Source: an uncultured Woeseia sp.
Lineage (GTDB): Bacteria; Pseudomonadota; Gammaproteobacteria; Steroidobacterales; UBA11654
DNA length: 64,000 nucleotides
Direction: 5' to 3'
Assembly (NCBI GenBank): GCA_964454905.1
Contig: CAYVTR010000001.1
Coordinates: 44,436-108,435 of the forward strand
The notes under the pieces were generated by a model that worked only from the letters and a program-made list of their open reading frames with translations, searched no databases and was not told the DNA's origin. A program made the position numbers and the translations under genes. This document shows, in pieces, positions 21,033 to 58,146 of the stretch. Each line of letters begins with the position of its first letter. Position 1 is the first letter of the stretch.

Positions 21033-21839
21033 CTACCAAGGAATGGTTCTTCCATCCTCATAGTCAATAAATAAACCATTTTGCTCCATAGTTAGATTCT
21101 CTATTACTGCCATCATTTTAGTCACACTTTCATCTATCTCTATTGCCCCCATTAGAGAAGTGCCTGGTGTAGTATTAACCATGCCGGGTGAGAGAGATAT
21201 CGCGATAACATCTTTTTTCTTGGTTTCAAATGAAAGACTATAAATCATGCTATTTAGTGCAGCCTTACTCATTGCATAGCTATACATCATAGGAATCTTA
21301 AGCCTTTCTCCGAATGAACTAGCTTTACTTGATAAAGCTATAATTTTCCCATTTTCTGATCGCTCAACATTCTTCATAAATGCCTGGATTATCTTCATGG
21401 TGCCTAAAGCATTAATTTCAAAACTTGTTCTGGTGATGTCTTCGTCGACACCAGATAGTTTTCTAAATGCTGAAAAATGTCTGGGCGTTAATCCTGCATT
21501 ATTAAGCAGAATATCTATGGTTTGATTTTTGTATTTAGAAGATAAATTCTCAATGTGTTCATTGTTGGTTATATCAAGAAGTTCAATAACAACATTATTA
21601 TTATTTGCTGCAAACTCTTGTAATTCATCAGCTTCTTCTGGGTTTCTAGCAGTGGCTATGACATTCCAATTCTTTTTTGAAAACTGCTTAACAAATTCAA
21701 GCCCTAGATTCCTATTGGATCCGGTAATAAGGACTGTAGGCTCATCATTCTCGAACGCATGTAAATCATTATTTGGTAACCAACTACAGATAAGCAGAAT
21801 AGCGAGTACTGAAGACAATAATTTATTTTGGTTTTTCAT
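21033..21839 (-). CDS. Short-chain dehydrogenase/reductase family protein with N-terminal signal or anchor
   Basis: 268 aa. Hydrophobic N-terminus (LLSSVLAILLICSWL...LHA), then a Rossmann motif VLITGSNRNLGLEF and a YSYAMSK catalytic Tyr-Lys block. Confidence 0.8.
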   Translation of the reverse strand: MKNQNKLLSSVLAILLICSWLPNNDLHAFENDEPTVLITGSNRNLGLEFVKQFSKKNWNVIATARNPEEADELQEFAANNNNVVIELLDITNNEHIENLSSKYKNQTIDILLNNAGLTPRHFSAFRKLSGVDEDITRTSFEINALGTMKIIQAFMKNVERSENGKIIALSSKASSFGERLKIPMMYSYAMSKAALNSMIYSLSFETKKKDVIAISLSPGMVNTTPGTSLMGAIEIDESVTKMMAVIENLTMEQNGLFIDYEDGRTIPW

Positions 21840-22419
21840 GATGTCCTATTGGAGGAAAACTTTCAGGTTCACAATCCTGTGGTGCCGATAATTTTACATC
21901 GTTATAGAGAGTTTTTTCACTGTTAATGCTTTCTTCTGTCACCCCTGCAATCTGTTTCCAATCTTCAGGTTTGAACACTTGTTTTTCTAGATCATAGGTC
22001 GAATGACGATTTGTTGCCAGCATATTTATAAAAACATCGAGAAAATGAGCTGCTTCTCTTTTAAATAAATCTATCTCGTATAAACCAGATTTGACTAATT
22101 GATCCTTAGCATTATTAAGTTGGGTCATGGATTTCTCCATAGCACCTAAGCCCTTTGATAAGCTTTCAAGTTTATTTTTATACTCTGTATTATCAGCTTC
22201 CACGTGAGGTAAAAGTAAATCATGGAGGATGTAGTCTTGATTTATTAAGCGTTTCAGAGAGAAATCAAAGTAATTTGAGCAAGCAACATAAAAGTTCACT
22301 AGACCAGGGTCAACATTTTGAATCTCTAAGCTTTTTGTAAAAGCTCTTCTCACTTGAGACAAGTGAGTTCTCTCATTTGAGACATGTGATTCGAAATCAT
22401 TTAAAGCTGACCCGCTCAT
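21823..22419 (-). CDS. Hypothetical protein (no family recognised)
   Basis: 198-aa ORF, helical-looking with several His residues. It lies 8 bp downstream of the PON gene and overlaps the downstream SDR gene by 17 nt, so it is probably co-transcribed with both. Confidence 0.5.
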   Translation of the reverse strand: MSGSALNDFESHVSNERTHLSQVRRAFTKSLEIQNVDPGLVNFYVACSNYFDFSLKRLINQDYILHDLLLPHVEADNTEYKNKLESLSKGLGAMEKSMTQLNNAKDQLVKSGLYEIDLFKREAAHFLDVFINMLATNRHSTYDLEKQVFKPEDWKQIAGVTEESINSEKTLYNDVKLSAPQDCEPESFPPIGHHEKPK

Positions 22420-22427
22420 ATATTTAA

Positions 22428-23501
22428 CTATAACTCACAAATGTACATTTGCTTATCATCAATTGAGCCCATAAATAATTTTTCATCCCAGATTACGCCC
22501 ACACTCGTGGTTGACATATCGTAACCCTCACTCATAAAGAGTTCTTTGACTGTATGATTTCCTTTATCATCAAACTCAATTTTAACGACTTGAGATGGGG
22601 CAGGCTTATACTCATTATTCTGCAGGGCGATAAAATGTTGTATTAATGCCCATACCTTAGGAATATTCGCCACCACTAAACTCCCGTCTTCTAGAACATT
22701 AATATTATCGGGAGAGCCTGATAATTTTAATGTGTTTATTTTTACTAAGGATCCATCTTTCAAATTGCGTTTTAAGATTGCCATTCTCTTTGCATTTGTT
22801 TCTGAGGCATAAACCGTTAGCTGATCTGGTGATAGATTAATTCCTGAGACAGAGGACAAATTATCCATAGCAACTTTAGCTGACTTACCGTCAAAATAGA
22901 CCACCGTAGACATAGGTCTTCCCAGTTGCTCTTGAATTTTATCTAAAGCGCTTACTCCGCCCTTATCATTACCCACATAGAATTTTTCTTTATCAACAAG
23001 AAGGACATCGTTAGGGCTTTGAAACAATGGATCAGAGACGCTTCTCACAAAATTAAACACTCCATTGTTTGTCTCAGAAAAGAGATCAATCACTTCGGGT
23101 TCTTCACCTCTATTTTTTGGATGATTAATGATGGCGAGATGACGCTTATCTGCATTGTCTATATATAAGCTCATGCCATGTGGTCTTAGGTGTTCAGGCT
23201 GTTTTGATAAGGCAGAGACCAACGTGTAGGGTTTTTTATTCAGATCAATTTTTCCTATGAACCCTTGAGTATTTTCTCCTTTAATCAAGGCTTCTCTGTC
23301 TTGGATAGAAAGATAAGCTATACCTCTTGTGTAATCGATCTCGATATCCTCAGCACTTCCATTCATTGCAAAACTTTCACAAATCTCTGGGGTATTGTTA
23401 GTGACTGTTTTAAATGTATCCATCCGTTGCAACATCCATAGACTGAATAGAAGAATGAAAAGAATAATCCAGCCAATTATTTTTAATATTTTCTTTATCA
23501 T
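22428..23501 (-). CDS. Paraoxonase/arylesterase (PON) family six-bladed propeller hydrolase, N-terminally anchored; probable lactonase
   Basis: Blocks GSAEDIEI, RPHGMSLY, HLAIINHP, GINLSPD, PDNINV and the C-terminal end MGSIDDKQMYICEL. These parallel human PON1 (GSEDLEI, NPHGIS, LLVVNHP, GINISPD, VDNISV, ...KALYCEL). N-terminal TM helix as in PON1. Confidence 0.8.
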   Translation of the reverse strand: MIKKILKIIGWIILFILLFSLWMLQRMDTFKTVTNNTPEICESFAMNGSAEDIEIDYTRGIAYLSIQDREALIKGENTQGFIGKIDLNKKPYTLVSALSKQPEHLRPHGMSLYIDNADKRHLAIINHPKNRGEEPEVIDLFSETNNGVFNFVRSVSDPLFQSPNDVLLVDKEKFYVGNDKGGVSALDKIQEQLGRPMSTVVYFDGKSAKVAMDNLSSVSGINLSPDQLTVYASETNAKRMAILKRNLKDGSLVKINTLKLSGSPDNINVLEDGSLVVANIPKVWALIQHFIALQNNEYKPAPSQVVKIEFDDKGNHTVKELFMSEGYDMSTTSVGVIWDEKLFMGSIDDKQMYICEL

Positions 23502-23537: not shown

Positions 23538-23559
23538 TATTTTATCAATTGATTATGAA
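23538..23559. promoter_or_regulatory. Palindromic operator, site A (17/22 to consensus, 10-bp core perfect)
   Basis: TATTTTATCAATTGATTATGAA. Overlaps the ATG (23555) of the MFS-DUF1838-TetR operon and lies 37 bp from the divergent PON gene start. Confidence 0.6.
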
Positions 23560-24883
23560 TCAACCAGCAGAATCGTCAAAGAATAATGTTGCAGAAATGG
23601 GGATAAAGTTTGGCCCTATAACGCTCATGCCAGATATTGAGAAGCGTCATCTTTTCACCTTATTTTTTGGTGCATTCTTCGGTATTGCCAGTATGGCATT
23701 AGTAAATGTCTTTGGCCCATTGGTGTTCGATATACTTGAGATTCCTCAAAACGAAACGGGCGCCCTAGCAGGTAAACTGACTGCAATGCAAGAGATAGTT
23801 GTGGTCTGTGTGATCGGATTAGCTGGTGCATTTTCAGATAAAGTTGGAAGAAGAATTGTGTATTCAATGGGATTTGTTTTTCTCGGCATAGGTTATTTTC
23901 TTTATCCGCTAGCTGGAGATAGCACTGAGCTCATCATTTTCCGAATCTTTATTGCCCTAGGCTGTGCTTGCAATACAGTAATGCTGCCTACGACGGCTAA
24001 TGATTACGTTCATGAGAGCACTCGCGGAAAACTAATCGCAACCACATCGATATTGAACGGATTAGGCCTTGTCCTCATCATAGGAAGCTTTAGAAGACTT
24101 CCGGAGTATTTTGTTAATCAAGGTTTTGATAGTGCGATTTCAGGTCAATACACAATTTGGTGTGCTTCAGCAATGGTTTTAATCGTTTCTACTATTCTTT
24201 ATACCAATTTGAAAAAAGGTGCGCCTGCTCAGGTCACCAAAAAAGGGTCTTATTTTTCAACATTAGCAATAGCATTTAAAGAAGCTAGAAACCCAAGAGT
24301 CGCACTTGCTTATACCGCTGGCGTTGTATCAAGAGGAGATTTGTCAGTGGTCAGCACCTTTTTTTCATTATGGCTATTCAACGAGGCTATCACCATGGAC
24401 ATGAGTCGTGCTGAAGCGTTTAAATTATCCACTGGCTTTTATGTGATGGTTCAAGCTTTTGCTATTCCTGGAGCAGTTTTGATCAATTTTTTTATAGATA
24501 AAGTTGATCGTGTCATGGCCTTGGCAATTTCTATGTTTATTGCAGCCTGCGGATATCTGTATCTTGGTTTTATTGATGATATTTTCAGTAACCAAATGTA
24601 TTTCGGGGCAGCGCTTTTAGGTTTGGGTGAAATTTTTGCAAATATTTCTGCGATATCATTGATCGGAAGTGCTGCACCAGCAAAAGGTCGGGGCGCTGTC
24701 ATTGGCGGATTCAGTTTTTTTGGAGCAATTGGCATTCTGTTAGTTGCCAGTATTGGTGGCTATTTATTTGATAATGTAGGCCCAACCGCACCATTCACTA
24801 TGGTTGGTTTTGCTAATGTTGCTCTTTTAATTTTAGCGCTATTGTTGTTATTCTTTGAGAATAGAAAAAATAATTTAAATTGA
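23555..24883 (+). CDS. MFS transporter (paralog of 61767-63092)
   Basis: 12-TM pattern with MFS loop motif DKVGRRIVY. I prefer ATG 23555 (MNQPAESS) over the track start 23504, because 23504-23554 contains the operator palindrome and encodes an implausible N-terminus. Confidence 0.85.
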   Translation: MNQPAESSKNNVAEMGIKFGPITLMPDIEKRHLFTLFFGAFFGIASMALVNVFGPLVFDILEIPQNETGALAGKLTAMQEIVVVCVIGLAGAFSDKVGRRIVYSMGFVFLGIGYFLYPLAGDSTELIIFRIFIALGCACNTVMLPTTANDYVHESTRGKLIATTSILNGLGLVLIIGSFRRLPEYFVNQGFDSAISGQYTIWCASAMVLIVSTILYTNLKKGAPAQVTKKGSYFSTLAIAFKEARNPRVALAYTAGVVSRGDLSVVSTFFSLWLFNEAITMDMSRAEAFKLSTGFYVMVQAFAIPGAVLINFFIDKVDRVMALAISMFIAACGYLYLGFIDDIFSNQMYFGAALLGLGEIFANISAISLIGSAAPAKGRGAVIGGFSFFGAIGILLVASIGGYLFDNVGPTAPFTMVGFANVALLILALLLLFFENRKNNLN

Positions 24884-24895
24884 TTGAGGTTTAAT

Positions 24896-25891
24896 ATGGA
24901 ACGAAGACAATTTTTTAAGAACATAGGTAATTTAGGAGCTTTAAGTGCAGGTGCCGCAGCTCTTAGTATATTCTCAGATCAAGCCAATGCTGATTTACCC
25001 TCTGCCTATGGGGGCGCGAGAGGTGATGCCTTAAACGGACCTTATTTAGATCTTAAAACAGGTGTAGGTAATAAATTAGCCTATTCTAGATTAAATGGTG
25101 ATTTAGATGAATCAAAGCAAAAAATCGGTTGGTTTAAAGGTTATATTATGGCCGTCAGACCCAATAAGCCTATACTTGATGTTCTTGGTGTTGCAGGCTT
25201 TGGAGTGTCTAGATTAGAGCAGCAAGCTGATGGATCCTTTGCCAAGATTCTTAGAGAGGTTGCCCTTTATACTGATCTGAGATCTGGAGAGGTTTTAGAG
25301 GAATATAAGAATCCTATGACCAATGAAATGGTTAAGGTTGTTCCTATTGCTAATGACCCTTTTAATTATGTGATTGAGGATTATTTCCCTCAGCCACCAA
25401 AATTTGGTGATTTAAACACAGAGGAACCACCAAAGATTCCATTTATTTTACCGTGGCAACAACGAGGTGATCGATTGGATATGGAGATACATATCAATCT
25501 TTTTTATCCAAATGCTCTTAATCCAAATAAATGGAAACGCGAATCTTCAGGGCCTATGGTGCAGGTATCTGAGGCCTTTGCTTATCATATTGATGCACAA
25601 AAGATGCAGGATCCAAGTTACACTACACTGCCTTTTAGTGGCACTTGGAATCGAATTACTCCATGGCTTCCTTGGATGTATATGGGTGATACCCCAGGAC
25701 ACATGATATACTCAGCCTTTATGGGTTCTGGTGAAGATCTTGAAGAAGTTCATAGTCGACAGGTATTGGATTATGTAGAAAAAAATTATCCAAAGTATTT
25801 TACTGCCCCTGAGACCTATGATCCAAAAACACCAAGCCTTTCAAGTCTTGAGTTGTATGCGATAGAGCAAACACCAGCTCCAGTGAAGTAA
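24896..25891 (+). CDS. DUF1838-like protein with twin-arginine signal (paralog 1 of 3)
   Basis: Start at ATG 24896, preceded by GAGG. Canonical Tat signal MERRQFFKNIGNLGALSAGAAALSIFSDQANA. The core YKNPMTNEMVKVVPIANDP fits my memory of DUF1838 and is clearly homologous to 46722-47519 and 47516-48391. Confidence 0.6.
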   Translation: MERRQFFKNIGNLGALSAGAAALSIFSDQANADLPSAYGGARGDALNGPYLDLKTGVGNKLAYSRLNGDLDESKQKIGWFKGYIMAVRPNKPILDVLGVAGFGVSRLEQQADGSFAKILREVALYTDLRSGEVLEEYKNPMTNEMVKVVPIANDPFNYVIEDYFPQPPKFGDLNTEEPPKIPFILPWQQRGDRLDMEIHINLFYPNALNPNKWKRESSGPMVQVSEAFAYHIDAQKMQDPSYTTLPFSGTWNRITPWLPWMYMGDTPGHMIYSAFMGSGEDLEEVHSRQVLDYVEKNYPKYFTAPETYDPKTPSLSSLELYAIEQTPAPVK

Positions 25892-25902
25892 AAAAAATAG
25901 TT

Positions 25903-26559
25903 ATGGCAAAAATAGCAAAATTAAAATCAAAAAAAAGGTTAACTCCTAGAGACCGAGAACAAGAGATTGTTGATGAGGCTGTACAATTTTTTGCCGAAGT
26001 TGGTTTTGATGGAAAAACCAGAGACTTAGCAAAAAGAATTGGCATTACACAACCGCTCTTGTATCGATATTTCCCAACAAAAGATGATCTGATAGAAAGA
26101 GTTTATAAGGAAGTTTATTTAAATCAGATGGATTCTGATTGGTCGTTAAAGCTTAAAGACCGATCTGTGCCATTGGAAGAAAGATTGGTTGCTTATTATA
26201 AATCTTATGCCAAAGTAGTTCACCGGTATGAATGGATAAGGATCTATTTCTTCTCAGGTTTAATGGGTAACCCTTTAAACAGGAGATACATAAGAGTTGT
26301 TGAGGAAGAGATTTTAAAGCCCATCTGTGAAGAAATCAGAGTAACTTGTAATTTACCTTCAATCAGCGAAATCCCCATAACACCTATTGAATTGGAACAA
26401 ATATGGGTTTTGCATGGTGGATTATTCTATTACGCTGTTAGAAAGAATATCTATCACAGTAATGTTTTCGATGACTTTGAAGCAATTGTTTCCAGCACTG
26501 TTAAGGTTATGTTGGAGGGCACCAAAGTTTTTAGCATTGAAGAACAAAATTCAACTTAA
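25903..26559 (+). CDS. TetR/AcrR family transcriptional regulator
   Basis: 218 aa. N-terminal HTH REQEIVDEAVQFFAEVGFDGKTRDLAKRIGITQPLLYRYFPTKDDL. It is the only transcription factor in the window. Confidence 0.9.
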   Translation: MAKIAKLKSKKRLTPRDREQEIVDEAVQFFAEVGFDGKTRDLAKRIGITQPLLYRYFPTKDDLIERVYKEVYLNQMDSDWSLKLKDRSVPLEERLVAYYKSYAKVVHRYEWIRIYFFSGLMGNPLNRRYIRVVEEEILKPICEEIRVTCNLPSISEIPITPIELEQIWVLHGGLFYYAVRKNIYHSNVFDDFEAIVSSTVKVMLEGTKVFSIEEQNST

Positions 26560-26593
26560 GCTGAGATTAATACACTCTTAATTAGGACTAGTT

Positions 26594-27484
26594 TTGAATA
26601 GCAAAAATAATATTCATTCTGTAGGAGTGATTGGTTTAGGGATCATTGGTTCTGCTTTATCAAAGCATATACATTTAAGTGATTTTGATGTCATGGGATT
26701 TGATATTGATGATCTTAAAATTGAAGCAGCTATTGCTAACGGAATCGAAGCCACAAAAAAGCTCGCTAATATAACAGAATTTTCCGAAGTCTTAATTACT
26801 TGCTTACCGAGCAATAAATCCTTGGACGATACTGTCAATTATCTAATAGATAATAATTGTGATTCAGTAAAAATTATTATTGATACCAGTACTCTAAGTT
26901 TGGATTGCAAGACTAGGAACAAAAACGCACTGAATAAAATTGGTATTACTTTACTTGATTGCCCAATTAGTGGCACTGGCAAGCAAGCAGAAGATGCTGA
27001 CATTGTTATATACGCCAGCGGTAGTTCAAGTTCCTATGAAACAGTGCTTCCATTGATTAGAAGTTTTTCTAGAGAATGTTTTTATTTAGGTGATTTTGGT
27101 AATGGCACTAAAACAAAATTAATAGCTAACCTCCTTGTAGCTATTCATAATGTTGCCTCTGCTGAAGCCATTTTACTGGGAAAGAAAACCGGTATAGAAA
27201 TGGAGACGTTGTTTAATGTGATTGCTTCAGGTGCAGGAAGCTCAAAAATTTTTGAGCTCCGAGCTCCTATGATGATTGAGCGAGAGTATCAACCTCCAAC
27301 CATGAAAATGAGTGTCTGGAAGAAAGATTTAGAGCTGATTAAAGAGTTAGTGGATGCCCATGGAACTAATACACCTCTTTTTAATCTCACTAAAGAATTG
27401 TATAAAAAAGCAGTTGATCTTGGTTTAGATGATGAGGACACAGCCTCTATTTATGAAATACTTAATGCAAACTCTTCTCGATGA
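26594..27484 (+). CDS. NAD(P)-dependent oxidoreductase, 3-hydroxyisobutyrate dehydrogenase family
   Basis: 296 aa with a TTG start. Rossmann motif VGVIGLGIIGSAL and a GNGTKTKLIANLL block typical of the HIBADH/6-PGDH-like family. Confidence 0.8.
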   Translation: MNSKNNIHSVGVIGLGIIGSALSKHIHLSDFDVMGFDIDDLKIEAAIANGIEATKKLANITEFSEVLITCLPSNKSLDDTVNYLIDNNCDSVKIIIDTSTLSLDCKTRNKNALNKIGITLLDCPISGTGKQAEDADIVIYASGSSSSYETVLPLIRSFSRECFYLGDFGNGTKTKLIANLLVAIHNVASAEAILLGKKTGIEMETLFNVIASGAGSSKIFELRAPMMIEREYQPPTMKMSVWKKDLELIKELVDAHGTNTPLFNLTKELYKKAVDLGLDDEDTASIYEILNANSSR

Positions 27485-27499
27485 GTAGTTTTAAGACTC

Positions 27500-28267
27500 A
27501 TGGCGAATAGCCCAATCAATTTTTATATGCAAGGCAAGGGCCAACCTCTTGTTCTTATCCATCCTCTTGGTTTGGATCATAGACTCTGGGATTATTGTGT
27601 TAGTGGTTTGGCTGAACATCGGACTCTTATCACTTTTGACTTACCGGGACATGGTCAATCACCAGTGCCTGACATTAATTATTCAATTGAGGATATTTCA
27701 AAGAGTCTTTTAGAATCGCTGAGGCTAGCTCAGATCGAAAAAGCTGATTTTTTAGGTTTATCAATTGGCGGCATGATTCTTCAACATTTTGCTTCAGTAA
27801 ATGCGTCTATGGTAGACAAGCTGATTTTAGTGGATACCACGTTCAAATACTCAAAAGATTGGCAACTTAACTGGACTGAACGAGCCAGGACCTCAAGAGA
27901 AGAGGGCTTGGAGGGCATGTTAGAGAAATTACTCGAGGCCTTTTTTACTCCAGAGTATTTAGAAAAAGGATCAGACGACATTGATTATTGTAAGCACGTC
28001 ATTTCCAGAATGTCAGGAGAGGGTTACGCTTTAGCGTGCGAAGCTTTATCAAGATGTAACCTTGAGAAATCTGCGACTGCAATAACCTCAGAGACCTTAA
28101 TCTTATGCGGAGATCGAGACAATGATCTATTCAAAGACGCAACCTTATGGTTGTCTCAAAACATACCTAATGCTCAATATGAATGGCTCTCGCCTGCCCA
28201 ACATTTGTCACCGTTGGAATGCAAGAATGATTTTTTAAAAATTGTAAAACGATTCCTGCAAATATAA
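27500..28267 (+). CDS. Alpha/beta hydrolase (3-oxoadipate enol-lactonase-like)
   Basis: 255 aa. LVLIHPLG oxyanion region and nucleophile elbow GLSIGG. Length and pattern resemble PcaD-type lactonases. Confidence 0.75.
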   Translation: MANSPINFYMQGKGQPLVLIHPLGLDHRLWDYCVSGLAEHRTLITFDLPGHGQSPVPDINYSIEDISKSLLESLRLAQIEKADFLGLSIGGMILQHFASVNASMVDKLILVDTTFKYSKDWQLNWTERARTSREEGLEGMLEKLLEAFFTPEYLEKGSDDIDYCKHVISRMSGEGYALACEALSRCNLEKSATAITSETLILCGDRDNDLFKDATLWLSQNIPNAQYEWLSPAQHLSPLECKNDFLKIVKRFLQI

Positions 28268-29378: not shown

Positions 29379-29400
29379 TTATTGATCAATTGATAAATAG
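29379..29400. promoter_or_regulatory. Palindromic operator, site B (20/22)
   Basis: TTATTGATCAATTGATAAATAG. Lies between the divergent LLM monooxygenase (start 29351) and the RidA-triple operon (start 29486). Confidence 0.7.
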
Positions 29401-41142: not shown

Positions 41143-41164
41143 TTATTTATCAGATGATAAATAA
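41143..41164. promoter_or_regulatory. Palindromic operator, site C (20/22)
   Basis: TTATTTATCAGATGATAAATAA. Lies 9 bp upstream of the start of the five-gene CoA-transferase operon (41134 down to 34062). Confidence 0.7.
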
Positions 41165-45703: not shown

Positions 45704-45725
45704 CTATTAATCATTTGATAAATAA
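45704..45725. promoter_or_regulatory. Palindromic operator, site D1 (19/22)
   Basis: CTATTAATCATTTGATAAATAA. Lies 16 bp upstream of the acetoacetyl-CoA synthetase start (45688, minus strand). Confidence 0.7.
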
Positions 45726-45744: not shown

Positions 45745-45766
45745 TTATTTATCAATTGATAAATAA
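45745..45766. promoter_or_regulatory. Palindromic operator, site D2 (22/22, perfect palindrome)
   Basis: TTATTTATCAATTGATAAATAA equals its own reverse complement. It abuts or overlaps the metF start, and its centre is 41 bp from the D1 centre. Confidence 0.75.
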
Positions 45767-46643
45767 GGAATATAAGTTGGTTAATTTCTCTTTAGAGTAT
45801 TTTCCTCCAGGCGATCAGGATGGACTCAAAAACTTGTCTAATCAGGCAAGGGTTATGTCTGCATATTCACCTCTGTATATGAGTATTACTCATAGTGCAA
45901 ACGGAGCAGAAATAAACGAAACAATGCGCACTGTTCAAATCCTTAAGGAACAACTATCAGTTGAAATTTCACCACATATGACTTGTTCTAGTTATTCTAA
46001 AGCTGAAATCATCAAAATGGCAGAAGATTATCTATCTTTAGGCGTGGAATCTGTGGTTGCATTGAGAGGTCATTTAATAGAGGACGCAACCATAGGCGAA
46101 CTTCGTTATGATAATTCCCCAGATTTTATTAATGCACTCAGTAAAAAGTTTGACTTCAGGATTTCAATTTCAGGTTACCCAGAAGGCCATCCTGAAAAGA
46201 AAGATGATGCATCAGAACTAAAATATTTGAGAAAAAAATGTGACGCTGGTGCTGATGAGATAATTACTCAATGGTTCTTTTCTAATGATTATTTACTTCA
46301 ATTTAGAGATCAGTGTGATGCCACCGGTATCAATATTCCAATTGTTCCTGGCATTTTGCCTATCAGTGATATTAAGAAGGTTAAGAATTTTGCAAAAGCC
46401 TGTGGATCAACGATCCCTAAAGAACTCGAGGAAGCATTTCTCAAAATTGATGGTGACATGGAGGCAACTGAAGAATTGGGCATCCATTATGCTATTCAAC
46501 AAATAGAGAATTTACATAAAGAAGGAATTGATAATTTTCACCTTTATACATTAAATAGAAGTGAGATGACTAAACAAATCATTGAGTATTTTGTAGTATC
46601 GATAACTGAGAATTATATAGCCTCAGAGAAAATGGCATCTTAG
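45756..46643 (+). CDS. metF: 5,10-methylenetetrahydrofolate reductase
   Basis: FSLEYFPP N-terminal strand, then SITHSANG, VALRG and GYPEGHPE blocks of MetF. The track start (TTG 45756) lies inside the operator palindrome. In-frame TTG 45777, preceded by AAGGAA, is an equally good start. Confidence 0.85.
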   Translation: MINKEYKLVNFSLEYFPPGDQDGLKNLSNQARVMSAYSPLYMSITHSANGAEINETMRTVQILKEQLSVEISPHMTCSSYSKAEIIKMAEDYLSLGVESVVALRGHLIEDATIGELRYDNSPDFINALSKKFDFRISISGYPEGHPEKKDDASELKYLRKKCDAGADEIITQWFFSNDYLLQFRDQCDATGINIPIVPGILPISDIKKVKNFAKACGSTIPKELEEAFLKIDGDMEATEELGIHYAIQQIENLHKEGIDNFHLYTLNRSEMTKQIIEYFVVSITENYIASEKMAS

Positions 46644-46721
46644 ACATTTCTTTTGTTCTCTAATAATATTGTCTTTGATTTGGCTGAAAAAGAGGATTAT
46701 TGTCAATATTAGGAATTAAAT

Positions 46722-47519
46722 ATGGATCGCAGAGCTTTATTATCGGGTAAATTTACAGAAGACACACTTAATCTGAGTAATTCAGGTCATAGTCTATATG
46801 CTTATGCAAAGTTATTGGGCTCAACAGATAATGCAATGGTTCACTTTAGTCTAGAGGGGACAATTTTCGCGCTATTACCTAATGGTGCCAAACCATTCAT
46901 AGGTTTTCAGGCCATACAGAAAGGCGTTTGGAAAAAACACGGTCAAAACTCATTTCAATTGAGATTATATGAAACTGGTTTTTTTCATGATCTAGACTCA
47001 AAAGAGCATATCGCGGTTTTTGAAAACCCCATTACCAATCAAACAAATCATCTGTCAGAGATCAGAGGCGGACCTTATGAAACTATAATTAAGCCAACAC
47101 AACATGATTGGGTAGTTTCAGGTGACGATGTTTGGATTCAGGAGCCCAATCCAAGAATAGGTTATTTTGGTTCAGCAGAAGCAAAAAATAAAAATAAACA
47201 AACTGCATTTGCTAACACTATTTTTAGAGGAAAGTTATCTCAGTTAAATGATGAATCATCCATAGCAGCATCAATGATGACTTACAATTATGTAAGTCCA
47301 TGGTATCCATTTTTTGAGATGGACAATGTTGAAGGAAAAATGTATTGGCAAGCTGTTGGAAATAAAACCCAATCTTGGTCTGATGTACCCACATCAATGC
47401 AAGAATTTTTAACAACAACCCAGAACAATTATTTTGAATCAACTAATCCATGGACTGAGAGAACGAGCACATTGAAGCATTTTAGACAATCTAATAAGCG
47501 GGATAAAATAAGACCATGA
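46722..47519 (+). CDS. DUF1838-like protein (paralog 2 of 3), with an RR motif but no hydrophobic signal core
   Basis: 265 aa. Shares YAYAKLLGSTDNAMVHF, GTIFA, KPFIGF, KGVWKK, FENPITN, SPWYPFFEM and YWQAVGNK blocks with 47516-48391. The N-terminus MDRRALLSGKFTED lacks an h-region. Confidence 0.6.
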   Translation: MDRRALLSGKFTEDTLNLSNSGHSLYAYAKLLGSTDNAMVHFSLEGTIFALLPNGAKPFIGFQAIQKGVWKKHGQNSFQLRLYETGFFHDLDSKEHIAVFENPITNQTNHLSEIRGGPYETIIKPTQHDWVVSGDDVWIQEPNPRIGYFGSAEAKNKNKQTAFANTIFRGKLSQLNDESSIAASMMTYNYVSPWYPFFEMDNVEGKMYWQAVGNKTQSWSDVPTSMQEFLTTTQNNYFESTNPWTERTSTLKHFRQSNKRDKIRP

Positions 47520-48391
47520 AAAAACAGATTAACAGGAGGCAAATGATTGGTGGCATGAGTGCTTTAGCGGTCTCGCCTCATTTAGTGTCTGGTCAAGGCC
47601 TTGATATCGTAGATCATAAGATTGATTTAAGTGATCCGGTTCAAAATGCACTAGCTTATGCCAAATTAGTGGGTACATCTGACAGAAGCATGATACACAT
47701 TTACTATAAAGGAACAATATTTGGAATGACTCCAGAGGAGGGCGTTAAGCCTATGATTGGCCACACCGGTGTTTTAAAGGGTGTTTGGAAACCATGGATT
47801 AACAATAGTTTTTACTACACGCTCTACGATGTAGGTTATTTTATGGATCTGAAAACAGGATTACCTGCAGAAGAATTCGAGAATCCTTTTACAGGTGAGA
47901 TTAATCGTCCAGTTAAGATTATTGGCGGCCCATTTGATCGAGTAATTAAACCAGAAGTACGACCATTTGAAAACAGGGGTGATGATCTTTGGTTAGATGA
48001 GCCTGCTTTTCTCAATTTTGTTAACAAGCTTGATCCAAAAATATGGAAGAAAGCTTCAACAGCAGAGAAACTCAGTTTTCTTTATGTTGAAACATATCAT
48101 GGAAAATTATCCGATTTAGCAAATCCTGATATCACAAGTGCACCCATGCAAATTACATCCACACACAATACCAGTTGGTATCCATTCTTTCTCATGGGAC
48201 AACGACCTGGAGGACACTATTGGCAAGCTGTAGGTAAAAAGATCCAGGATCTTGAAAGTGATGTCCCTATTGAATTGATTAATTATATTGAGAAAGAGCA
48301 ACCGGGGTATTTTGAGTCTGAAAAACCTTGGAAAAAAAGAAAAGGTACCTTTCAGGCCTATAAAGATGAGAGGGAGCCTATCCAAGGTTGA
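47516..48391 (+). CDS. DUF1838-like protein (paralog 3 of 3) with twin-arginine signal
   Basis: 291 aa. Tat signal NRRQMIGGMSALAVSPHLVSG. Same conserved blocks as paralog 2. ATGA overlap with the upstream gene. Confidence 0.6.
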   Translation: MKKQINRRQMIGGMSALAVSPHLVSGQGLDIVDHKIDLSDPVQNALAYAKLVGTSDRSMIHIYYKGTIFGMTPEEGVKPMIGHTGVLKGVWKPWINNSFYYTLYDVGYFMDLKTGLPAEEFENPFTGEINRPVKIIGGPFDRVIKPEVRPFENRGDDLWLDEPAFLNFVNKLDPKIWKKASTAEKLSFLYVETYHGKLSDLANPDITSAPMQITSTHNTSWYPFFLMGQRPGGHYWQAVGKKIQDLESDVPIELINYIEKEQPGYFESEKPWKKRKGTFQAYKDEREPIQG

Positions 48392-48399
48392 ACTAGGAG

Positions 48400-49890
48400 C
48401 TAGATCGTCGGCTTAATGTTTGCATTTAATCTGAATAAATTGGTTGGATCATATTTATTCTTGATTTCAACAAGTGTTTCATAATTACCAAGAAAATTGA
48501 GATTGACATCTTTTTGGCTTTCAGAGAATTCATCATTGATATAAAACCCATCCGTATATGGCGAGACTGTTTTCCAGTATCTTCTGGACCAAGCCATATG
48601 TGGTGCTGTATCGACCCCGACAGTCCAAAAGGAACCCGTGATCAAATTGTGTTCAGCATATCGACTAGGGAATGCTGTTGCATCTGAAGCGATGGTGTTG
48701 ATTTTTCCACCTGATTGCTGAAAGAAAGCCATACTTCCTCTTTCTGGATGAGCCTCAAGGTTTTCGACGAGGGCATCAATTAAGCCATCTGAAATATTGA
48801 TTGTATATCCGCCTTTTAGATACTGCGATGCTCCTCGCGGGTCATCATCATCGCCACTCTTTTGTAAATCACGATAGTCAATAATATCTATCTCATCATG
48901 AATCACCTTACCTGCTTTACGCAGAGGTGCGAAGGCCTTATCAGCATCTTTATGTGGCCCCGAGTAACAAACATCAAAGTACACTGTATTTCCATATCCC
49001 ATAGGTGGAGCAAAAACAACAGGATCTTGATACATATCCCATGAGGCTTCTAGAGAATGCTCCCCATGAAATCTTAATAATTGCTTAACATCTTTAAAAT
49101 CAAATGTGATTCTGCCTCCAATAACATCCTTATTCATCTCATGAAGTTTGAATTCAAATGTAGTAACTATTCCGAAATTGCCACCACCACCTCTGACGGC
49201 CCAAAAGAGGTCAGGGTTTTCGTTTTTGTCTGCATATCTTAACTCGCCATCTGCAGTGATGATTTCAATGCTTTTCATGTTATCTAATGTTAGTCCATAT
49301 TTTCTGCCCAATCTTCCAAAGCCACCCCCTGTAGCTAGACCGCCAACACCGGTGTGAGAAACAGTTCCAGCTGTTGTTCCCAGTCCATGAGGTATGGTCG
49401 CCGCATCCACTTCACCGAGCCATGACCCACCTTTTATAAAAAGTCTTTTATTTGCTTTGTCCAGTCTAGTCCCTCTGAAAGGGGAGAGGTCAATCATTAG
49501 ACCTTGGTCACATGTGCCTTTTCCAGAAACACTATGACCGCCGCATTTCACTGCCGTTAAAAGGCTAAATTCTCTTGCAAAATTTACAGCTTTTTGAATG
49601 TCAGTTTCATCAACACATTGAGCAATAAGGGCCGGTTTTTTATCGATGATTCTGTTTCTAACCAATCTAGCAACATCGTATCCATTATCATCTTGTAACA
49701 GCAGTGTGCCCTTAAGGCTGTTTCTAAGGTTTGTTATATCGGCCTTTTTAAGTATGAGATTATCACCATCGCCAGTAATCGCTAGTAATTCACTAGGTAT
49801 TAGATTTTCAGCTGAATATCCTCTCCATGAGGGGAACAGCATAGCTGAAACTGCCATGCTTGAATTAGTGATAAAATCTCTTCTTTTCAT
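48400..49890 (-). CDS. Tat-exported FAD-linked oxidase of the VAO/BBE (berberine-bridge-like) family, copy 1
   Basis: 496 aa. Tat signal MKRRDFITNSSMAVSAMLFPS. FAD_binding_4 blocks (VKCGGHSVSG, GTTAGTVSHTGVGGLATGGGFG, RGGGGNFGIVT). C-terminal BBE-type tail (YDPTNLFRLNANI). Confidence 0.85.
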   Translation of the reverse strand: MKRRDFITNSSMAVSAMLFPSWRGYSAENLIPSELLAITGDGDNLILKKADITNLRNSLKGTLLLQDDNGYDVARLVRNRIIDKKPALIAQCVDETDIQKAVNFAREFSLLTAVKCGGHSVSGKGTCDQGLMIDLSPFRGTRLDKANKRLFIKGGSWLGEVDAATIPHGLGTTAGTVSHTGVGGLATGGGFGRLGRKYGLTLDNMKSIEIITADGELRYADKNENPDLFWAVRGGGGNFGIVTTFEFKLHEMNKDVIGGRITFDFKDVKQLLRFHGEHSLEASWDMYQDPVVFAPPMGYGNTVYFDVCYSGPHKDADKAFAPLRKAGKVIHDEIDIIDYRDLQKSGDDDDPRGASQYLKGGYTINISDGLIDALVENLEAHPERGSMAFFQQSGGKINTIASDATAFPSRYAEHNLITGSFWTVGVDTAPHMAWSRRYWKTVSPYTDGFYINDEFSESQKDVNLNFLGNYETLVEIKNKYDPTNLFRLNANIKPTI

Positions 49891-49921
49891 AAATTTATAT
49901 CTTAATTAGATTCTATATTAC

Positions 49922-49943
49922 TTATTTATCAAATGATAAACAA
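49922..49943. promoter_or_regulatory. Palindromic operator, site E (20/22)
   Basis: TTATTTATCAAATGATAAACAA. Lies 32 bp upstream of the BBE-oxidase copy 1 start (49890, minus strand). Confidence 0.7.
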
Positions 49944-49968
49944 TAGAACTTTTTTATTTAAGATCATT

Positions 49969-50700
49969 TTAGTTTGATATAGTCCCTAAAGATTCGTCTA
50001 TTGCATTCAAAATACGGTTAGTGCAACTATCTTTTAGAATACAATTGACGGTCAATAAAGCTAAATCTTTTCTAGTAACTTTGCCTACAACATTTATATT
50101 GTCGCTTAAAAATGCTTTGTTTGTTGCTGGTGTATCATCATAAACGATAATGCCTGTTTTAATAATTGTGTAATTAAGGCCGCTATTAATTAGAGTATGC
50201 TCTGCTTCACCTTTAGCTATCAATATATCTCTCCACATACTGTGTTCAGGATCTGGACCAGCCCCAACTGATCCGATCAAAATAAAATGTTTTACACCAT
50301 TTATCTTTGACCACTTACTCAGATTAAGTTGTCCAATGGCATGTGGATTCTGACTTTCTCCGACTTTAGCAATTGCATTGATTACAACATCATAAGCGAC
50401 ATCAGTGAACACTTGTTGCATGTCTGTTTCTAGTAAAACGTTGCCTTTGAGGTATTTAATATTTTGGTCCTTTAACCTTCTGCGATTAGAGTCAGATCTA
50501 CTTAAAACGGTTATATCCCTGTAATCATCATGTAATGCTTTCACTATCTCAGAGCCGACTCGCCCTGTTCCACCAATAACTAAAATTTTTTCATTAGACT
50601 CTGCAAAGCCATTAGAGAAAAATAGAATGAAGATAAAGCTAAACTTTAAGGAGCGTTTAACTTTGTTTCCTAACCAAATAAAAAAACCACTATGAAACAT
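49969..50700 (-). CDS. NAD(P)H-binding atypical SDR (NmrA-like) protein with N-terminal hydrophobic signal or anchor
   Basis: 243 aa. LKFSFIFILFFSNGFA hydrophobic segment followed by ILVIGGTGRVGSEIVKAL. Confidence 0.7.
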   Translation of the reverse strand: MFHSGFFIWLGNKVKRSLKFSFIFILFFSNGFAESNEKILVIGGTGRVGSEIVKALHDDYRDITVLSRSDSNRRRLKDQNIKYLKGNVLLETDMQQVFTDVAYDVVINAIAKVGESQNPHAIGQLNLSKWSKINGVKHFILIGSVGAGPDPEHSMWRDILIAKGEAEHTLINSGLNYTIIKTGIIVYDDTPATNKAFLSDNINVVGKVTRKDLALLTVNCILKDSCTNRILNAIDESLGTISN

Positions 50701-50734
50701 ATTTTTAGTTTATTACTTTACAGTCTAGAGTATT

Positions 50735-50758
50735 TTATTAAAGATTAATCTTTTATAA
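50735..50758. promoter_or_regulatory. Second, different palindrome (TTATTAAAGATTAATCTTTTATAA; 14-bp perfect core AAAGATTAATCTTT)
   Basis: Lies 35 bp upstream of the NmrA-like gene start (50700, minus strand). It shares the TTATTA/TATAA flanks of the main motif but has a different core. Confidence 0.4.
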
Positions 50759-50778
50759 ATAATCTATAAGCTTATTGC

Positions 50779-50800
50779 TTATTAATCAAATGATAAATAG
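50779..50800. promoter_or_regulatory. Palindromic operator, site F (19/22)
   Basis: TTATTAATCAAATGATAAATAG. Lies 36 bp upstream of the MBL-fusion/FGE/cytochrome c operon start (50836). Confidence 0.7.
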
Positions 50801-50835
50801 TATAGAATTCAAGAAAATAATCTAAAGGGATACGA

Positions 50836-52653
50836 ATGAAACTTAAAGCCTTTCATATAGTTATAATTTTATGTTTTGTTGCAAAAAGCACTTTTATCCA
50901 CTCCACAGAACAGGGTAATAATGAAGCATTAGAGAACGCCATATCTGGTTTAGGTGGAACTTTGGCTTTGAGTCAACTGGAAGGCTATAAGATAGTGAGC
51001 GAAAGAGACGAGTACATTATGGGTCAAGGAGCTGAACCCGGAAAAGGCATGATGTTATTGGCTGCTCCTTCCACAATTGTTGCTCATAGACTTGATAACA
51101 AATCCATTAGGGTAGATTTAATCACCACTCTGGCGGCTAGAGAGGGAGGTTACTTAACTAGAGAAAGTAACATTTTACTGCTTGGAGATGCTGGGTACCT
51201 CAGTGAGGATGACGCTATGGGCATAGTGAAAGAAAGAGACAAAGTTCTTTCTCCTGATAAGGCAGCAGCAAATATAAAAACAGAACGACTTCTTAATCCA
51301 CATCTACTAATCAAAGAGGTTTTGAATGACCCTAGCTTGTTGTTAGATCAAAAAATTCAAACAAATTCTGAGCGAGGCTGGAGATATCATCAAGATGAAG
51401 TTATGCCCGTCACCATAGATCGTATTCGTCAAACAGGCTTAAGAACACTCATAGCGACTCAAGAGTGGGAGAATGAAGCGAGCAAGAAAGTTTTCTATCC
51501 AAAGATGATCAATAAAACAGTCATTAATCCTGAGTGGTTTAATGATTGGAAGAGTAATACCCAAATTGATGAAGAAAAGTTTGATCAATTCAGTTTAAGA
51601 GATAAAGTTTATCCCATCACTTTTTTCGTTAATAAAAAAACAGGCTTAATAGAAAAGTTAAGCACCATGGAGTGGGATGTTGTCTATGGCGATATTGAAA
51701 TTGAGGTAAAATTTGATGATTGGAACATGGACAATAAAATTCCTTTCCCTATGACGGTGAAAATGTCGCAAGGCGGCGCACCAAGATGGGAAATCAGGCG
51801 AAAAAGCATAGAACTCAATCCAGATTATTCGCCTGATTATTTTAGCCCTCCAAAGCAGCTAGATTATGTTCATGATGTGGGATCAGCTAAAAGAGGTTGG
51901 GAAGTAAGCCAAACAATGAGGATGTTTACCTTATCAGTTGCCTACAGACCTGAAATTAATGCATTAGAATTAGATGATGGAGTTCATTATCTTTCTGCTC
52001 TACCTATTGATGGGGTGTACACGATGGTTGTTGAGCAAGAGAATGGAGTAGTAGTAGTAGAGCCTGGGATGAATGACTTAAAGGGCGAAGAGATTATTAA
52101 ATGGATACAACAAAACATACCCGGTAAGCCCATCACACATATAATTCCTACACATCATCATAATGATCATGGTGCAGGCATTAGACCCTATGTCGCTGAA
52201 GGAGCAGCTCTCGTAGCACATGAGACAGCAGTAGATTTTTACCGTACTCAAATTAATCGACCAAAATCATCTGTGGTTATTGATGCGCTTGATAGGGAAT
52301 TTAAAAAAGGATCAGAAACGGTCATCGGTGTCACAAGTAATGATGCGTATACAATTGAAGATACCGATCGACCCGTTGTGATCTATCCTGTGTTGAATGG
52401 GCATGTGGAAGATATGGTTATTATCTTGGTGGGCAATAAAAATTTTCTATATGCAGGTGATCTATACGTTAGTGGTATTGCTAGGGATAAAAGATCAGGA
52501 ACCAAAAGAGGACCCAATGTTGTACCATATCATTCAGCCATATCATTGAATGAGACGATAATGAAATTTAACATTCCCAGAGGGCCTCTATTGGGTTCCC
52601 ATGATAAAGAAGCAGTCAGTTATCAAGATTTAATTGATTACATCACCGATTGA
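50836..52653 (+). CDS. Secreted two-part protein: unrecognised ~370-aa N-terminal domain plus C-terminal metallo-beta-lactamase fold
   Basis: 605 aa. Signal peptide (IVIILCFVAKSTFIHS). MBL motif IIPTHHHNDHGAG at about residue 438 with later His/Asp ligands. I recognise no family for the N-terminal part. Confidence 0.7.
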   Translation: MKLKAFHIVIILCFVAKSTFIHSTEQGNNEALENAISGLGGTLALSQLEGYKIVSERDEYIMGQGAEPGKGMMLLAAPSTIVAHRLDNKSIRVDLITTLAAREGGYLTRESNILLLGDAGYLSEDDAMGIVKERDKVLSPDKAAANIKTERLLNPHLLIKEVLNDPSLLLDQKIQTNSERGWRYHQDEVMPVTIDRIRQTGLRTLIATQEWENEASKKVFYPKMINKTVINPEWFNDWKSNTQIDEEKFDQFSLRDKVYPITFFVNKKTGLIEKLSTMEWDVVYGDIEIEVKFDDWNMDNKIPFPMTVKMSQGGAPRWEIRRKSIELNPDYSPDYFSPPKQLDYVHDVGSAKRGWEVSQTMRMFTLSVAYRPEINALELDDGVHYLSALPIDGVYTMVVEQENGVVVVEPGMNDLKGEEIIKWIQQNIPGKPITHIIPTHHHNDHGAGIRPYVAEGAALVAHETAVDFYRTQINRPKSSVVIDALDREFKKGSETVIGVTSNDAYTIEDTDRPVVIYPVLNGHVEDMVIILVGNKNFLYAGDLYVSGIARDKRSGTKRGPNVVPYHSAISLNETIMKFNIPRGPLLGSHDKEAVSYQDLIDYITD

Positions 52654-53651
52654 GAATTACATTGAGAAGGGTGTATCAGTTTTGTCAAATTACAGCGCCT
52701 CTGCTCTGTTTATCATTTATAGCTTTGAATATTAATTCCCATGAAATTAATGCATCACAATTGATCAAGGATTGTGAGCATTGCCCACAAATGATTATTA
52801 TAGAACCTGGTGAATTCATTATGGGCTCGTCATCAAGCGTTGAAGGATCTAGGGATGATGAGCGACCACAGCATCAAGTTCGCATAGAGTATTTTTTTGC
52901 TGCGGGACAGTATGAGGTCAAAAGAATTGAGTTTGAGCAATTTATACGAAGCACAGGATATGACATGTCAGGTGGTTGTTATGGAGCAACGGAAAATGGT
53001 ATTCAACTTGGAAAAAATTTAGATTGGAATGATCCTGGTTATCCTATTTCAGATGATCATCCAGTTGTATGTGTGAGCTGGAATGATGCCAAGGCATACA
53101 CAAGTTGGTTATCAAAAAAGACTGGTTACAGATATCGACTTTTTTCTGAATCTGAGTGGGAGTATGTAGCCAGAGCAGGAACAAACACCATTCGCTTCTG
53201 GGGAGACAGCGAAGAGGGGTGTGAATTTGCAAATGGTGCAGATCTTGATATTACACCAGAAGCATTTCTGGAAGAAATGCGAGCCAGACAAACAAAAATT
53301 GTGTTACCTGAAAACTGGAAAGTTGCAAACTGTCATGATGGTTTTATTACCTCAGCTTCTGTAGGTTCCTTCAAGCCCAATGCATTTGGTATTTACGATA
53401 TCTTAGGTAATGTTGCAGAGTGGGTAGAGGATTGTTATAACGATTCCTATATAAATGCCCCAAATGACGGCTCAGCAAGATTATACGGGGACTGTGATAG
53501 ACCTATTTTAAGAGGCGCTTCATATTACGACATGCCGATCTACTTGAGATCATCAAATCATTATGGTTTTCAATCAGATCAATCAAAAAATAAAGATACT
53601 CGTTACATCAATTTCGGTTTTAGAGTAATGCGAGAAGTGACAGAACATTAA
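52650..53651 (+). CDS. Formylglycine-generating-enzyme (SUMF1/EgtB/PvdO) family protein, predicted exported
   Basis: 333 aa with a TTG start overlapping the upstream stop. CEHCPQMIIIEPGEFIMGS, HPVVCVSWNDAKAYTSWLS, LFSESEWEYVARAG, GNVAEWVEDC and RGASYY blocks of the FGE fold. Confidence 0.85.
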   Translation: MRITLRRVYQFCQITAPLLCLSFIALNINSHEINASQLIKDCEHCPQMIIIEPGEFIMGSSSSVEGSRDDERPQHQVRIEYFFAAGQYEVKRIEFEQFIRSTGYDMSGGCYGATENGIQLGKNLDWNDPGYPISDDHPVVCVSWNDAKAYTSWLSKKTGYRYRLFSESEWEYVARAGTNTIRFWGDSEEGCEFANGADLDITPEAFLEEMRARQTKIVLPENWKVANCHDGFITSASVGSFKPNAFGIYDILGNVAEWVEDCYNDSYINAPNDGSARLYGDCDRPILRGASYYDMPIYLRSSNHYGFQSDQSKNKDTRYINFGFRVMREVTEH

Positions 53652-54277: not shown

Positions 54278-54281
54278 TCAG

Positions 54282-55763: not shown

Positions 55764-55796
55764 AAAATAATTGTTTTTATTAAAAGAGTGATCATT

Positions 55797-56465: not shown

Positions 56466-56493
56466 AATGACAGTCTAGCGGAAATTTTTTGAT

Positions 56494-58138: not shown

Positions 58139-58146
58139 GGATATAT

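Follow-up and report, generated by a model that had tools for sequence, protein, structure and literature searches.

We analyzed a 64-kb stretch of DNA (64,000 nucleotides, 37% GC; hereafter the window) in which positions 25903-26559 of the plus strand carry the gene for a TetR-family regulator, the proposed repressor discussed in this study. The gene belongs to a five-gene operon (23555..28267, plus strand), which was delimited by ORF spacing, Pfam and NCBIfam matches, and gene-order conservation. The operon comprises an MFS transporter (23555-24883), a DUF1838 protein with a twin-arginine signal (24884-25891), the regulator, a HIBADH-like dehydrogenase (26594-27484), and an enol-lactonase-like alpha/beta hydrolase (27500-28267). 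The successive genes are separated by gaps of 0, 11, 34, and 15 bp, and their order is kept in the nine closest genomes (L001-L009), in agreement with the preliminary description, which had placed tetR third in an operon of this composition. The MFS transporter starts at ATG 23555 (MNQP), and the same start is found in L006 and L007.

The regulator belongs to an uncharacterized TetR subfamily

The regulator gene encodes a protein of 218 aa, and Pfam assigned the TetR_N domain (PF00440) to its residues 22-67 (E=2.4e-13; 50 bits against a cut-off of 24). The AF2 model of the protein, the confidence of which is only moderate (pLDDT 77.3), is all-helical with 10 helices. When this model was submitted to Foldseek, the best 50 of the 57 PDB matches (E <= 0.001) were all TetR-family proteins, with TM values of 0.5-0.65; the top matches were SmcR/HapR/LuxR, Thermus FadR, AmtR, PhlH, and RutR, at 15-22% identity. 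By the model and the Foldseek matches, the protein has the two-domain, all-helical fold of the family with a C-terminal ligand/dimerization domain.

Sequence searches of PDB and NCBIfam retrieved no close characterized relative of the protein; the HTH region alone produced matches, and the scores were far under every NCBIfam equivalog cut-off. For the C-terminal domain, neither these sequence searches nor Foldseek identified a characterized relative, and the domain is highly conserved among the homologs. Because the PDB and NCBIfam matches are confined to the HTH and lie far under the equivalog cut-offs, and because the best fold matches are all TetR-family proteins, the protein is a TetR-family regulator of an uncharacterized subfamily. 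The homologs number more than 1500 and come from Alpha- and Gammaproteobacteria of marine and soil habitats; orthologs are 50-98% identical to the protein, and their HTH is almost invariant.

The surroundings of the operon were searched for further regulators. The Pfam scan of all ORFs of at least 150 aa and of small ORFs in the gaps detected no other DNA-binding transcription-factor domain in the 64 kb, which bears out the earlier statement that this TetR is the sole recognizable transcription factor of the window. The left 20 kb of the window is housekeeping DNA (murB, ddl, ftsQ, ftsA, lpxC, secA, zapD, coaE, sucCD, bamD, aspS, and others). The count of regulators carries two caveats, namely a Zn_ribbon_8/FmdB-like ORF at 14140-14454 and four ORFs with no Pfam match (5114-5404, 21823-22419, 55797-56465, and 63089-63553). 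The contig of the same genome runs 9 kb beyond the right end of the window, and an XRE-cupin regulator is located about 5 kb past that end, beside an aminotransferase operon.

Nine copies of a 22-bp palindrome lie in intergenic DNA

The window contains nine copies of a 22-bp palindrome, ttatTwATCA-NN-TGATwAataa, distributed over seven intergenic regions that lie from 23.5 to 58.2 kb. The sequence TTATCAATTGATAA was matched 10 times at two or fewer mismatches, against 1.5 matches expected, and none of 100 shuffles reached this number; nine of the 10 matches are intergenic and can be extended to the 22-bp palindrome. We built a site matrix from the window's own palindrome copies and scored sites in bits. 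Eight sites scored 22.7-32.1 bits, and all eight sites of at least 22 bits fall in intergenic DNA, which constitutes 4.9% of the window. The ninth site, designated site A, is level with an intragenic half-match in secA (18.9 bits). With this matrix, neither the 20 kb of housekeeping DNA nor the 9 kb that follow the right end of the window yielded a site.

The central two bases of the palindrome vary freely and the half-sites are fixed, a pattern typical of a dimer operator. It had been pointed out previously that the half-sites TATCA/TGATA are those of tetO with a centre of 2 bp instead of 1 bp, and this is read straight from the sequence. None of the sites has the 15-bp tetO form TATCA-N1-TGATA; all have the 2-bp centre and conserved flanks extending to 22 bp. 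A Fur box was also considered, and it was ruled out by the orientation of the half-sites and by the fact that the motif follows TetR genes in high-GC genomes.

The seven intergenic regions adjoin up to 12 transcription units comprising about 36 genes. The leftmost putative operator, site A (TATTTTATCAATTGATTATGAA; 23538..23559), is the weakest at 18.3 bits, and its core, TTATCAATTGATTA, contains the mismatched half TGATTA. The site lies 47 bp from the divergent start of a PON/SGL-like arylesterase, which together with an unknown protein and an SDR forms a candidate target on the minus strand (21033..23501; Pfam). The second putative operator (29379..29400; 28.2 bits) separates a luciferase-like monooxygenase (LLM; 28275-29351, minus strand) from an operon encoding a triple RidA protein (3xRidA), a dehydrogenase, a CocE/NonD hydrolase, and a racemase (29486-34078, plus strand), and it occupies the same place in L001-L007. 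Both units, annotated by Pfam and NCBIfam, are candidate core targets, and their genes are the commonest neighbours of TetR orthologs. Among solved structures, the LLM is closest to 3,6-diketocamphane 1,6-monooxygenase (E=7.5e-33). The combination of LLM, RidA, alpha/beta hydrolase, and TetR prompted us to consider a Rut-like pyrimidine system with a RutR-type regulator; this candidate was rejected, as the LLM did not match RutA, the RutC and RutD models scored far under their cut-offs, and RutR was only a distant fold match.

The remaining candidate targets were annotated by Pfam. A putative operator at 41143..41164 (28.1 bits; intergenic region 41135-41240) precedes a minus-strand unit encoding a double CoA-transferase, a hydrolase, an ACAD, an MFS_2 transporter, and a TRZ/ATZ amidohydrolase (41134-34062). 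Two putative operators share the divergent region at 45.7 kb. The first (45704..45725; 27.5 bits) is on the side of a minus-strand unit encoding an acyl-CoA synthetase, an MBL protein, and an FAD oxidoreductase (45688-41241), and its TTGATA half coincides with a -35-like hexamer. The second is a perfect palindrome (TTATTTATCAATTGATAAATAA; 45745..45766; 32.1 bits) and has a -10-like TATACT on one side and, on the other, the Shine-Dalgarno sequence and TTG start (~45777) of MTHFR, which forms a plus-strand unit with two DUF1838 genes (from 45777). Site 45704 and its 41-bp spacing from site 45745 are kept in L113 and L130, and the two-site layout persists in relatives in which the flanking proteins are only 55-66% identical.

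Farther to the right, a putative operator (49922..49943; 27.9 bits) lies 42 bp upstream of a BBE-type FAD oxidase (48400-49890, minus strand), and it is kept upstream of homologs in L090, L100, L125, and L159. Another (50779..50800; 27.5 bits; intergenic region 50701-50835) is flanked by an NAD(P)-binding protein on the minus strand and an operon for an MBL protein, an FGE-sulfatase, and a cytochrome c on the plus strand. The putative operator at 58079..58100 (30.5 bits), on the side of a minus-strand unit encoding a BBE oxidase, an unknown protein, and UbiD, overlaps a -35-like TTGATT on that strand. The last putative operator (58147..58168; 22.7 bits) is 80 bp upstream of a TonB-dependent receptor (58237-60906, plus strand; Pfam Plug and TonB_dep_Rec). 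The units from MTHFR to this receptor span 45777..60906.

In most of the regions, 19-47 bp separate the centre of a site from the closest start codon listed, and once the start of MTHFR is corrected, its site centre is about 21 bp away. This placement, over or just downstream of promoter-like elements, is what would be expected of a repressor. Because the promoter scan showed no enrichment of promoter-like matches over shuffles in this AT-rich DNA, the geometry is suggestive only.

The palindrome travels with tetR orthologs

We compared 80 ortholog loci, each including 10 kb on either side of tetR. These loci range from 36 to 72% GC and derive from Alpha- and Gammaproteobacteria, namely Woeseia-labelled MAGs (the closest, at 89% identity), Porticoccaceae, Halomonas, Aquisalimonas, Stellaceae, Rhodospirillaceae, and Burkholderiales. 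The results revealed a site of at least 20 bits in 58 of the 80 loci, compared with 0.67 loci on average when 30 palindromic matrices with permuted columns were used. A relaxed core was present within 10 kb in 68 of the 80 loci, compared with 0-2 in block shuffles. Five further loci had slightly variant sites; the other seven are for the most part on contigs that are short or truncated. Co-occurrence of the orthologs with the motif across genomes, which the preliminary description had put forward as a check, is therefore what the comparison found, and the pairing of this TetR with the palindrome as the putative repressor of the island is strongly supported by comparative genomics.

The association between the TetR and the motif recurs in many independent gene arrangements. 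A site is located less than 300 bp upstream of tetR in 23 of the 80 loci; in about 21 loci it is 63-210 bp upstream, and in L024 and L042 it overlaps the ATG of tetR. In the Stellaceae loci the site precedes an LLM-tetR pair, and in the Rhodospirillaceae loci two sites, 46 bp apart, precede a 2OG-oxygenase-tetR pair. L008 and L009 have the site between DUF1838 and the tetR sub-operon, and the Burkholderiales-type loci have TGATCAGGCGATAA about 20 bp before the tetR ATG. Throughout the orthologs, including those of these four arrangements, the recognition helix ITQPLLYRYF is invariant. Plasmid homologs are 41-49% identical and occur in other gene contexts; the homolog on pDSHI05 of Dinoroseobacter shibae has the helix TQSLLFRYF and a different upstream repeat, TGATCAyTTGCTC.

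When the protein was aligned with TetR(B) by BLASTP, its residues T39, R40, Q50, P51, Y54, and K60 fell on T27, R28, Q38, P39, Y42, and K48. We take these TetR(B) residues to be those that read the TGATA half-site in the 1QPI complex, and the half-site shared by the two systems fits this alignment. By analogy, the six aligned residues of the 218-aa protein would make the same base contacts.

We also scanned metagenome contigs in the reverse direction for the exact 22-mer TTATTTATCANNTGATAAATAA, which yielded 115 stretches, 80 of which were classed. The stretches are mostly short, and a TetR gene can lie more than 30 kb from a site. Approximately 14 stretches contain homologs of target genes from the window, with the site at the corresponding position, and 10 high-GC loci carry a TetR ortholog (43-49% identity) directly beside the 22-mer. 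Three loci (L093, L126, and L149) encode a distant TetR whose similarity is confined to the HTH, and the 22-mer lies 70-85 bp before the start of that TetR gene, indicating that different TetR lineages can use the 22-mer as an operator. In a further 24 loci of ~42% GC, which lack a TetR, the 22-mer separates a LysR-family gene from a divergent SoxG/GcvT-like gene; the rest are singletons in AT-rich DNA. Because the same 22-mer occurs in this LysR-linked promoter of another lineage, it is not exclusive to the TetR and can act for a different family of regulators, and its sequence alone does not name the regulator. A search of the literature on the exact motif and on DUF1838 found nothing useful.

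Other explanations of the palindrome

The LysR-linked loci lead to an alternative in which the palindrome is bound by a regulator from outside the window, for example one of the LysR type, and the TetR controls its own operon or nothing in the island. The absence of a TetR near those 24 promoters agrees with this alternative, as do the presence of only the weakest site at the TetR's own operon, the small part of the genome that the window represents, and the XRE-cupin regulator beyond the right end. We nevertheless consider it very unlikely: the 24 loci are a single orthologous locus in one lineage and hence one evolutionary instance, whereas the motif accompanies TetR orthologs at varied GC and in many different gene orders; neither the window nor the surroundings of the sites in the ortholog loci examined contain a LysR gene; and the scan of the 9 kb found no palindrome near the XRE gene.

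A second alternative is that a paralogous TetR with the same recognition helix is encoded elsewhere in the genome and shares or takes some of the operators, in which case the TetR of the window would not be the sole master. This also appears very unlikely, given that no second copy was found in the 64 kb or the 9 kb beyond and that the closest relatives have a single copy per locus, although one MAG (assembly DATNIT01) does contain two paralogs of the subfamily (L046 and L057) and the distant TetR subfamily of L093, L126, and L149 has the same 22-mer before its own gene.

The idea that the palindrome is no protein operator but a consequence of AT-rich composition at promoters, or else a short dispersed repeat, is close to refuted: the low GC content of the window, the likeness of the half-sites to -35 hexamers, and the weak enrichment of the core at three mismatches (24 against 13.9 expected) are compatible with it, but no shuffle reached the count at two or fewer mismatches, loci of at least 60% GC (60-70%) contain 35 copies of the exact core TTATCANNTGATAA against 0.002 expected from composition, and a free centre with fixed half-sites is the pattern of a dimer operator.

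Autoregulation is likely in the subfamily and doubtful at this locus

The observation that site A overlaps the first start codon of the operon was confirmed, since the MFS gene does begin at 23555, with a conserved ATG. The proposal built on it, that the TetR is autoregulated, was upheld in part. For the subfamily in general, autoregulation is well supported by the frequent position of a site upstream of or over the tetR start. In this genome, autoregulation through site A is doubtful, as the site is the weakest of the nine. Site A is kept in L001 and L007 at 14.5-14.7 bits, is degraded in L006, and is absent in L002, L003, L005, L008, and L009; in L002, L003, and L005, the TetR proteins of which are 74-77% identical, a different conserved element replaces it. 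The mismatch in site A and its loss or degradation in relatives suggest that self-control is ancestral for the family and is weak or partly lost here.

The target set is broad relative to the orthologs

In other lineages, the orthologs have 1-3 sites within 10 kb of tetR, which suggests that the nine-operator set is a lineage-specific expansion. In the Porticoccaceae-type loci, a single site precedes an operon consisting of tetR, a dehydrogenase, 3xRidA, a dehydrogenase, and CocE/NonD, and the homologs of other island genes nearby are without sites. The regulon had been described as unusually broad for a TetR. This holds in comparison with its own orthologs, but not in comparison with the family, in which the regulons of KstR (16-31 motifs and 74-83 genes; PMC1995591) and SmcR (at least 121 genes controlled through the 22-bp box TTATTGATWWRWTWNTNAATAA; PMC2859563) are larger. 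Most TetR-family members control an adjacent gene (PMC4482099).

Proposed model

On the basis of family membership, the enrichment and placement of the motif, and its co-occurrence with the orthologs, all of which were established by computation, we consider it highly probable that 25903-26559 encodes a homodimeric repressor of a conserved, uncharacterized Alpha- and Gammaproteobacterial subfamily that acts on nine operators. In the mechanism that we infer, which is standard for the TetR family, the HTH would read the half-site TGATA(A) in the 22-bp palindrome with base-contacting residues of the TetR(B) type, and a basic N-terminal arm may contact the outer TTAT/ATAA, as in SmcR/LuxR. The ligand-free dimer would bind the nine operators and block the adjoining units. 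The blocked set would include the TonB-dependent receptor, the MFS transporters, and the BBE oxidases, which are probably periplasmic, together with the Baeyer-Villiger-type LLM, the lactonase-like hydrolases, and the CoA-dependent steps. A substrate or intermediate of the pathway would then bind the C-terminal domain and release the repressor. The ancestral core regulon probably consisted of the regulator's own operon and the LLM, 3xRidA, and CocE/NonD genes, and the nine-operator set would represent an expansion in a low-GC marine lineage. Any self-control at this locus would depend on site A, the weak site over the start codon with which the operon begins.

A more elaborate version of this model is possible, and we offer it tentatively, as it is rather less likely than not to be correct in all of its parts. 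In this version, the operator would be a hybrid, with tetO-type inner half-sites spaced by one additional bp and outer TTATT arms of the SmcR/LuxR type, and the TetR would be the master switch of a 35-kb island. The outer TTATT arms would be read by the basic N-terminal arm and the inner half-sites by the R/Q/P/Y residues. An ancestral autoregulator of one operon would have been recruited as the single switch in one low-GC pelagic lineage, and the island would serve to take up and oxidize a substrate of the alicyclic ketone or lactone type. If this version is true, the locus would exemplify regulon growth by operator spread in a regulator-poor genome, and the tetO-like repressor/operator pair would likely be orthogonal to tetO.

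The simpler model of a repressor acting on nine operators has implications of its own. It would assign a specific operator to a widespread, never characterized TetR subfamily, and it would delimit a coherent regulon that includes a Baeyer-Villiger-type monooxygenase, a triple RidA protein, a CocE/NonD hydrolase, and a TRZ/ATZ amidohydrolase. The ligand of the regulator would name the substrate of this catabolic pathway. The locus would also provide a clear case of regulon growth, from the 1-3 operators of most lineages to nine, and a repressor that uses tetO-type half-sites at another spacing could serve as an orthogonal switch.

Comparison with known systems

TetR(B) and TetR(D) belong to the same family as the regulator described here; the HTH is 33% identical over 51 residues, the six contact residues are kept, and the half-site TATCA/TGATA is common to tetO and the palindrome. 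The regulator nevertheless differs from TetR proper, as it scores 32.9 with NF010319 against a cut-off of 265 and matches that model over residues 19-78 alone. The half-sites of tetO are spaced by 1 bp, compared with 2 bp here, and the operator here extends to 22 bp. The target of TetR(B) and TetR(D) is an efflux pump, whereas the targets here are catabolic genes, and the C-terminal domains are unrelated.

The nearest solved relatives are LuxR, HapR, and SmcR (sequence E about 5e-8 over residues 8-116; fold TM 0.58-0.64), which share the basic N-terminal arm and act on many targets. LuxR-type proteins both activate and repress, and they are not known to have a natural small-molecule ligand. 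The regulator scores 27.5 with NF040929 against a cut-off of 350, and the identity in structural alignments is 19-21%. The SmcR box is, like the palindrome, 22 bp long and pseudo-palindromic with outer TTATT/AATAA (PMC2859563), but its inner half is unlike that of the palindrome, and the targets here are clustered in one island. We regard the resemblance in box and N-terminal arm as a lead.

CamR, encoded on the CAM plasmid of Pseudomonas putida, was compared by operator and function. This TetR homolog represses its own gene as well as a camphor-oxidation operon, and the substrate releases it (PMC4592980). The LLM of the island is a close relative of the camphor-pathway 3,6-diketocamphane monooxygenase. 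CamR has a single operator, CAGGCTCTATATCTGCGATATACTGAGCAT (TATATC-N3-GATATA), in contrast to the TTATCA-N2-TGATAA repeated here.

The mycobacterial KstR (Rv3574), a TetR-type repressor, controls its own gene and a large catabolic regulon, in which a short palindrome recurs in many intergenic regions (PMC1995591). It differs from the present regulator in its motif (TnnAACnnGTTnnA), in its phylum, and in its larger and more dispersed regulon, and no specific sequence relationship between the two proteins is detectable. In function rather than as a sequence family, nine sites in seven intergenic regions adjoining up to 12 units place the present regulator in a KstR-like class, and by this analogy KstR is its best functional counterpart.

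Occurrence of the putative operator sequence beside other regulators

The putative operator of the TetR-family protein (window 25903-26559, plus strand) was also found beside other regulators. In 24 metagenome loci of approximately 42% GC (L082, L084, L087, L088, L092, L104, and 18 further loci), a LysR-family gene starts at a distance of 47-50 bp from the exact 22-mer TTATTTATCANNTGATAAATAA, a divergent SoxG/GcvT-like gene lies 32-80 bp away from the 22-mer, and no TetR gene was found near it in these loci. The same 22-mer was identified 70-85 bp upstream of the genes of a distant TetR subfamily (L093, position 1669; L126, position 597; and L149, position 7222). The helix-turn-helix (HTH) of this subfamily is TTRKIAEIAGIKQPMIAHYF, and its likeness to the TetR of the window was confined to the HTH (E about 1e-6). 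The R...QP signature was paired with TATCA half-sites once more in these three loci.

Weak and variant palindromes

Among relatives of the window, site A, the weakest putative operator, was replaced in the arylesterase/MFS intergenic region by another conserved element, AATCTTACTTGTTATTC-N7-CACTATCGAGCAATATT, at approximately 7500 in L002, 7450 in L003, 7500 in L005, and 3600 in L009. A weak palindrome, TTAATAAACAGCTTATAAATAA (35559-35580; 11.7 bits with the matrix built from the window sites), immediately precedes the amidohydrolase gene, whose start is at 35546, and is kept in the close relative L001 at 14418 with 14.5 bits; it may be a degenerate operator. The half-operator TTATTTATCAATTAAGAAATGA within secA (7493-7514; 18.9 bits), which comprises a perfect left half and a degenerate right half, is most likely due to chance.

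Other possible regulators and the cell-division cluster

Zn_ribbon_8 (FmdB-like) ORFs are frequently labelled "putative regulatory protein" in annotation. The small ORF of this type in the window (14140-14454, plus strand), which carries a lysine-rich tail, is no known DNA-binding factor. An XRE-cupin regulator was located approximately 5 kb past the right end of the window (6570-7124 of L081, a contig of the same genome), divergent from an operon encoding an aminotransferase, an aldehyde dehydrogenase, and an alanine dehydrogenase. No TetR-type palindrome was found in the 9 kb past this end, the XRE-cupin region included.

In the cell-division cluster, ftsA (2873-4105) directly adjoins the next gene, lpxC (4203-5117), with a gap of 97 bp. 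No ftsZ was found between the two genes (2873-5117), and a scan of all frames of the 64-kb window revealed no tubulin signature GGGTG[ST]G.

Proteins and possible chemistry of the island

The island encodes a 428-aa protein with three RidA/L-PSP domains in one chain (29486-30772, plus strand), which is conserved (identity 46-86%) and adjoins the TetR ortholog in 24 of the 80 ortholog loci, and a 770-aa fused double CoA-transferase family III protein comprising two units (38822-41134, minus strand). Three DUF1838 paralogs (24884-25891, 46722-47519, and 47516-48391) lie within the candidate regulon; the first carries a twin-arginine signal (MERRQFFKN), and a twin-arginine motif is also present at the N-terminus in homologs of the BBE oxidase (48400-49890). 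A putative operator is followed by a flavin reductase gene in some loci from Alphaproteobacteria.

Judged from sequence likeness, the luciferase-like monooxygenase (28275-29351, minus strand), together with PON/SGL-like and enol-lactonase-like hydrolases, points to a putative pathway of cyclic-ketone ring oxidation and lactone opening, because the nearest solved relative of the monooxygenase, matched over its full length (E=7.5e-33), is 3,6-diketocamphane 1,6-monooxygenase.
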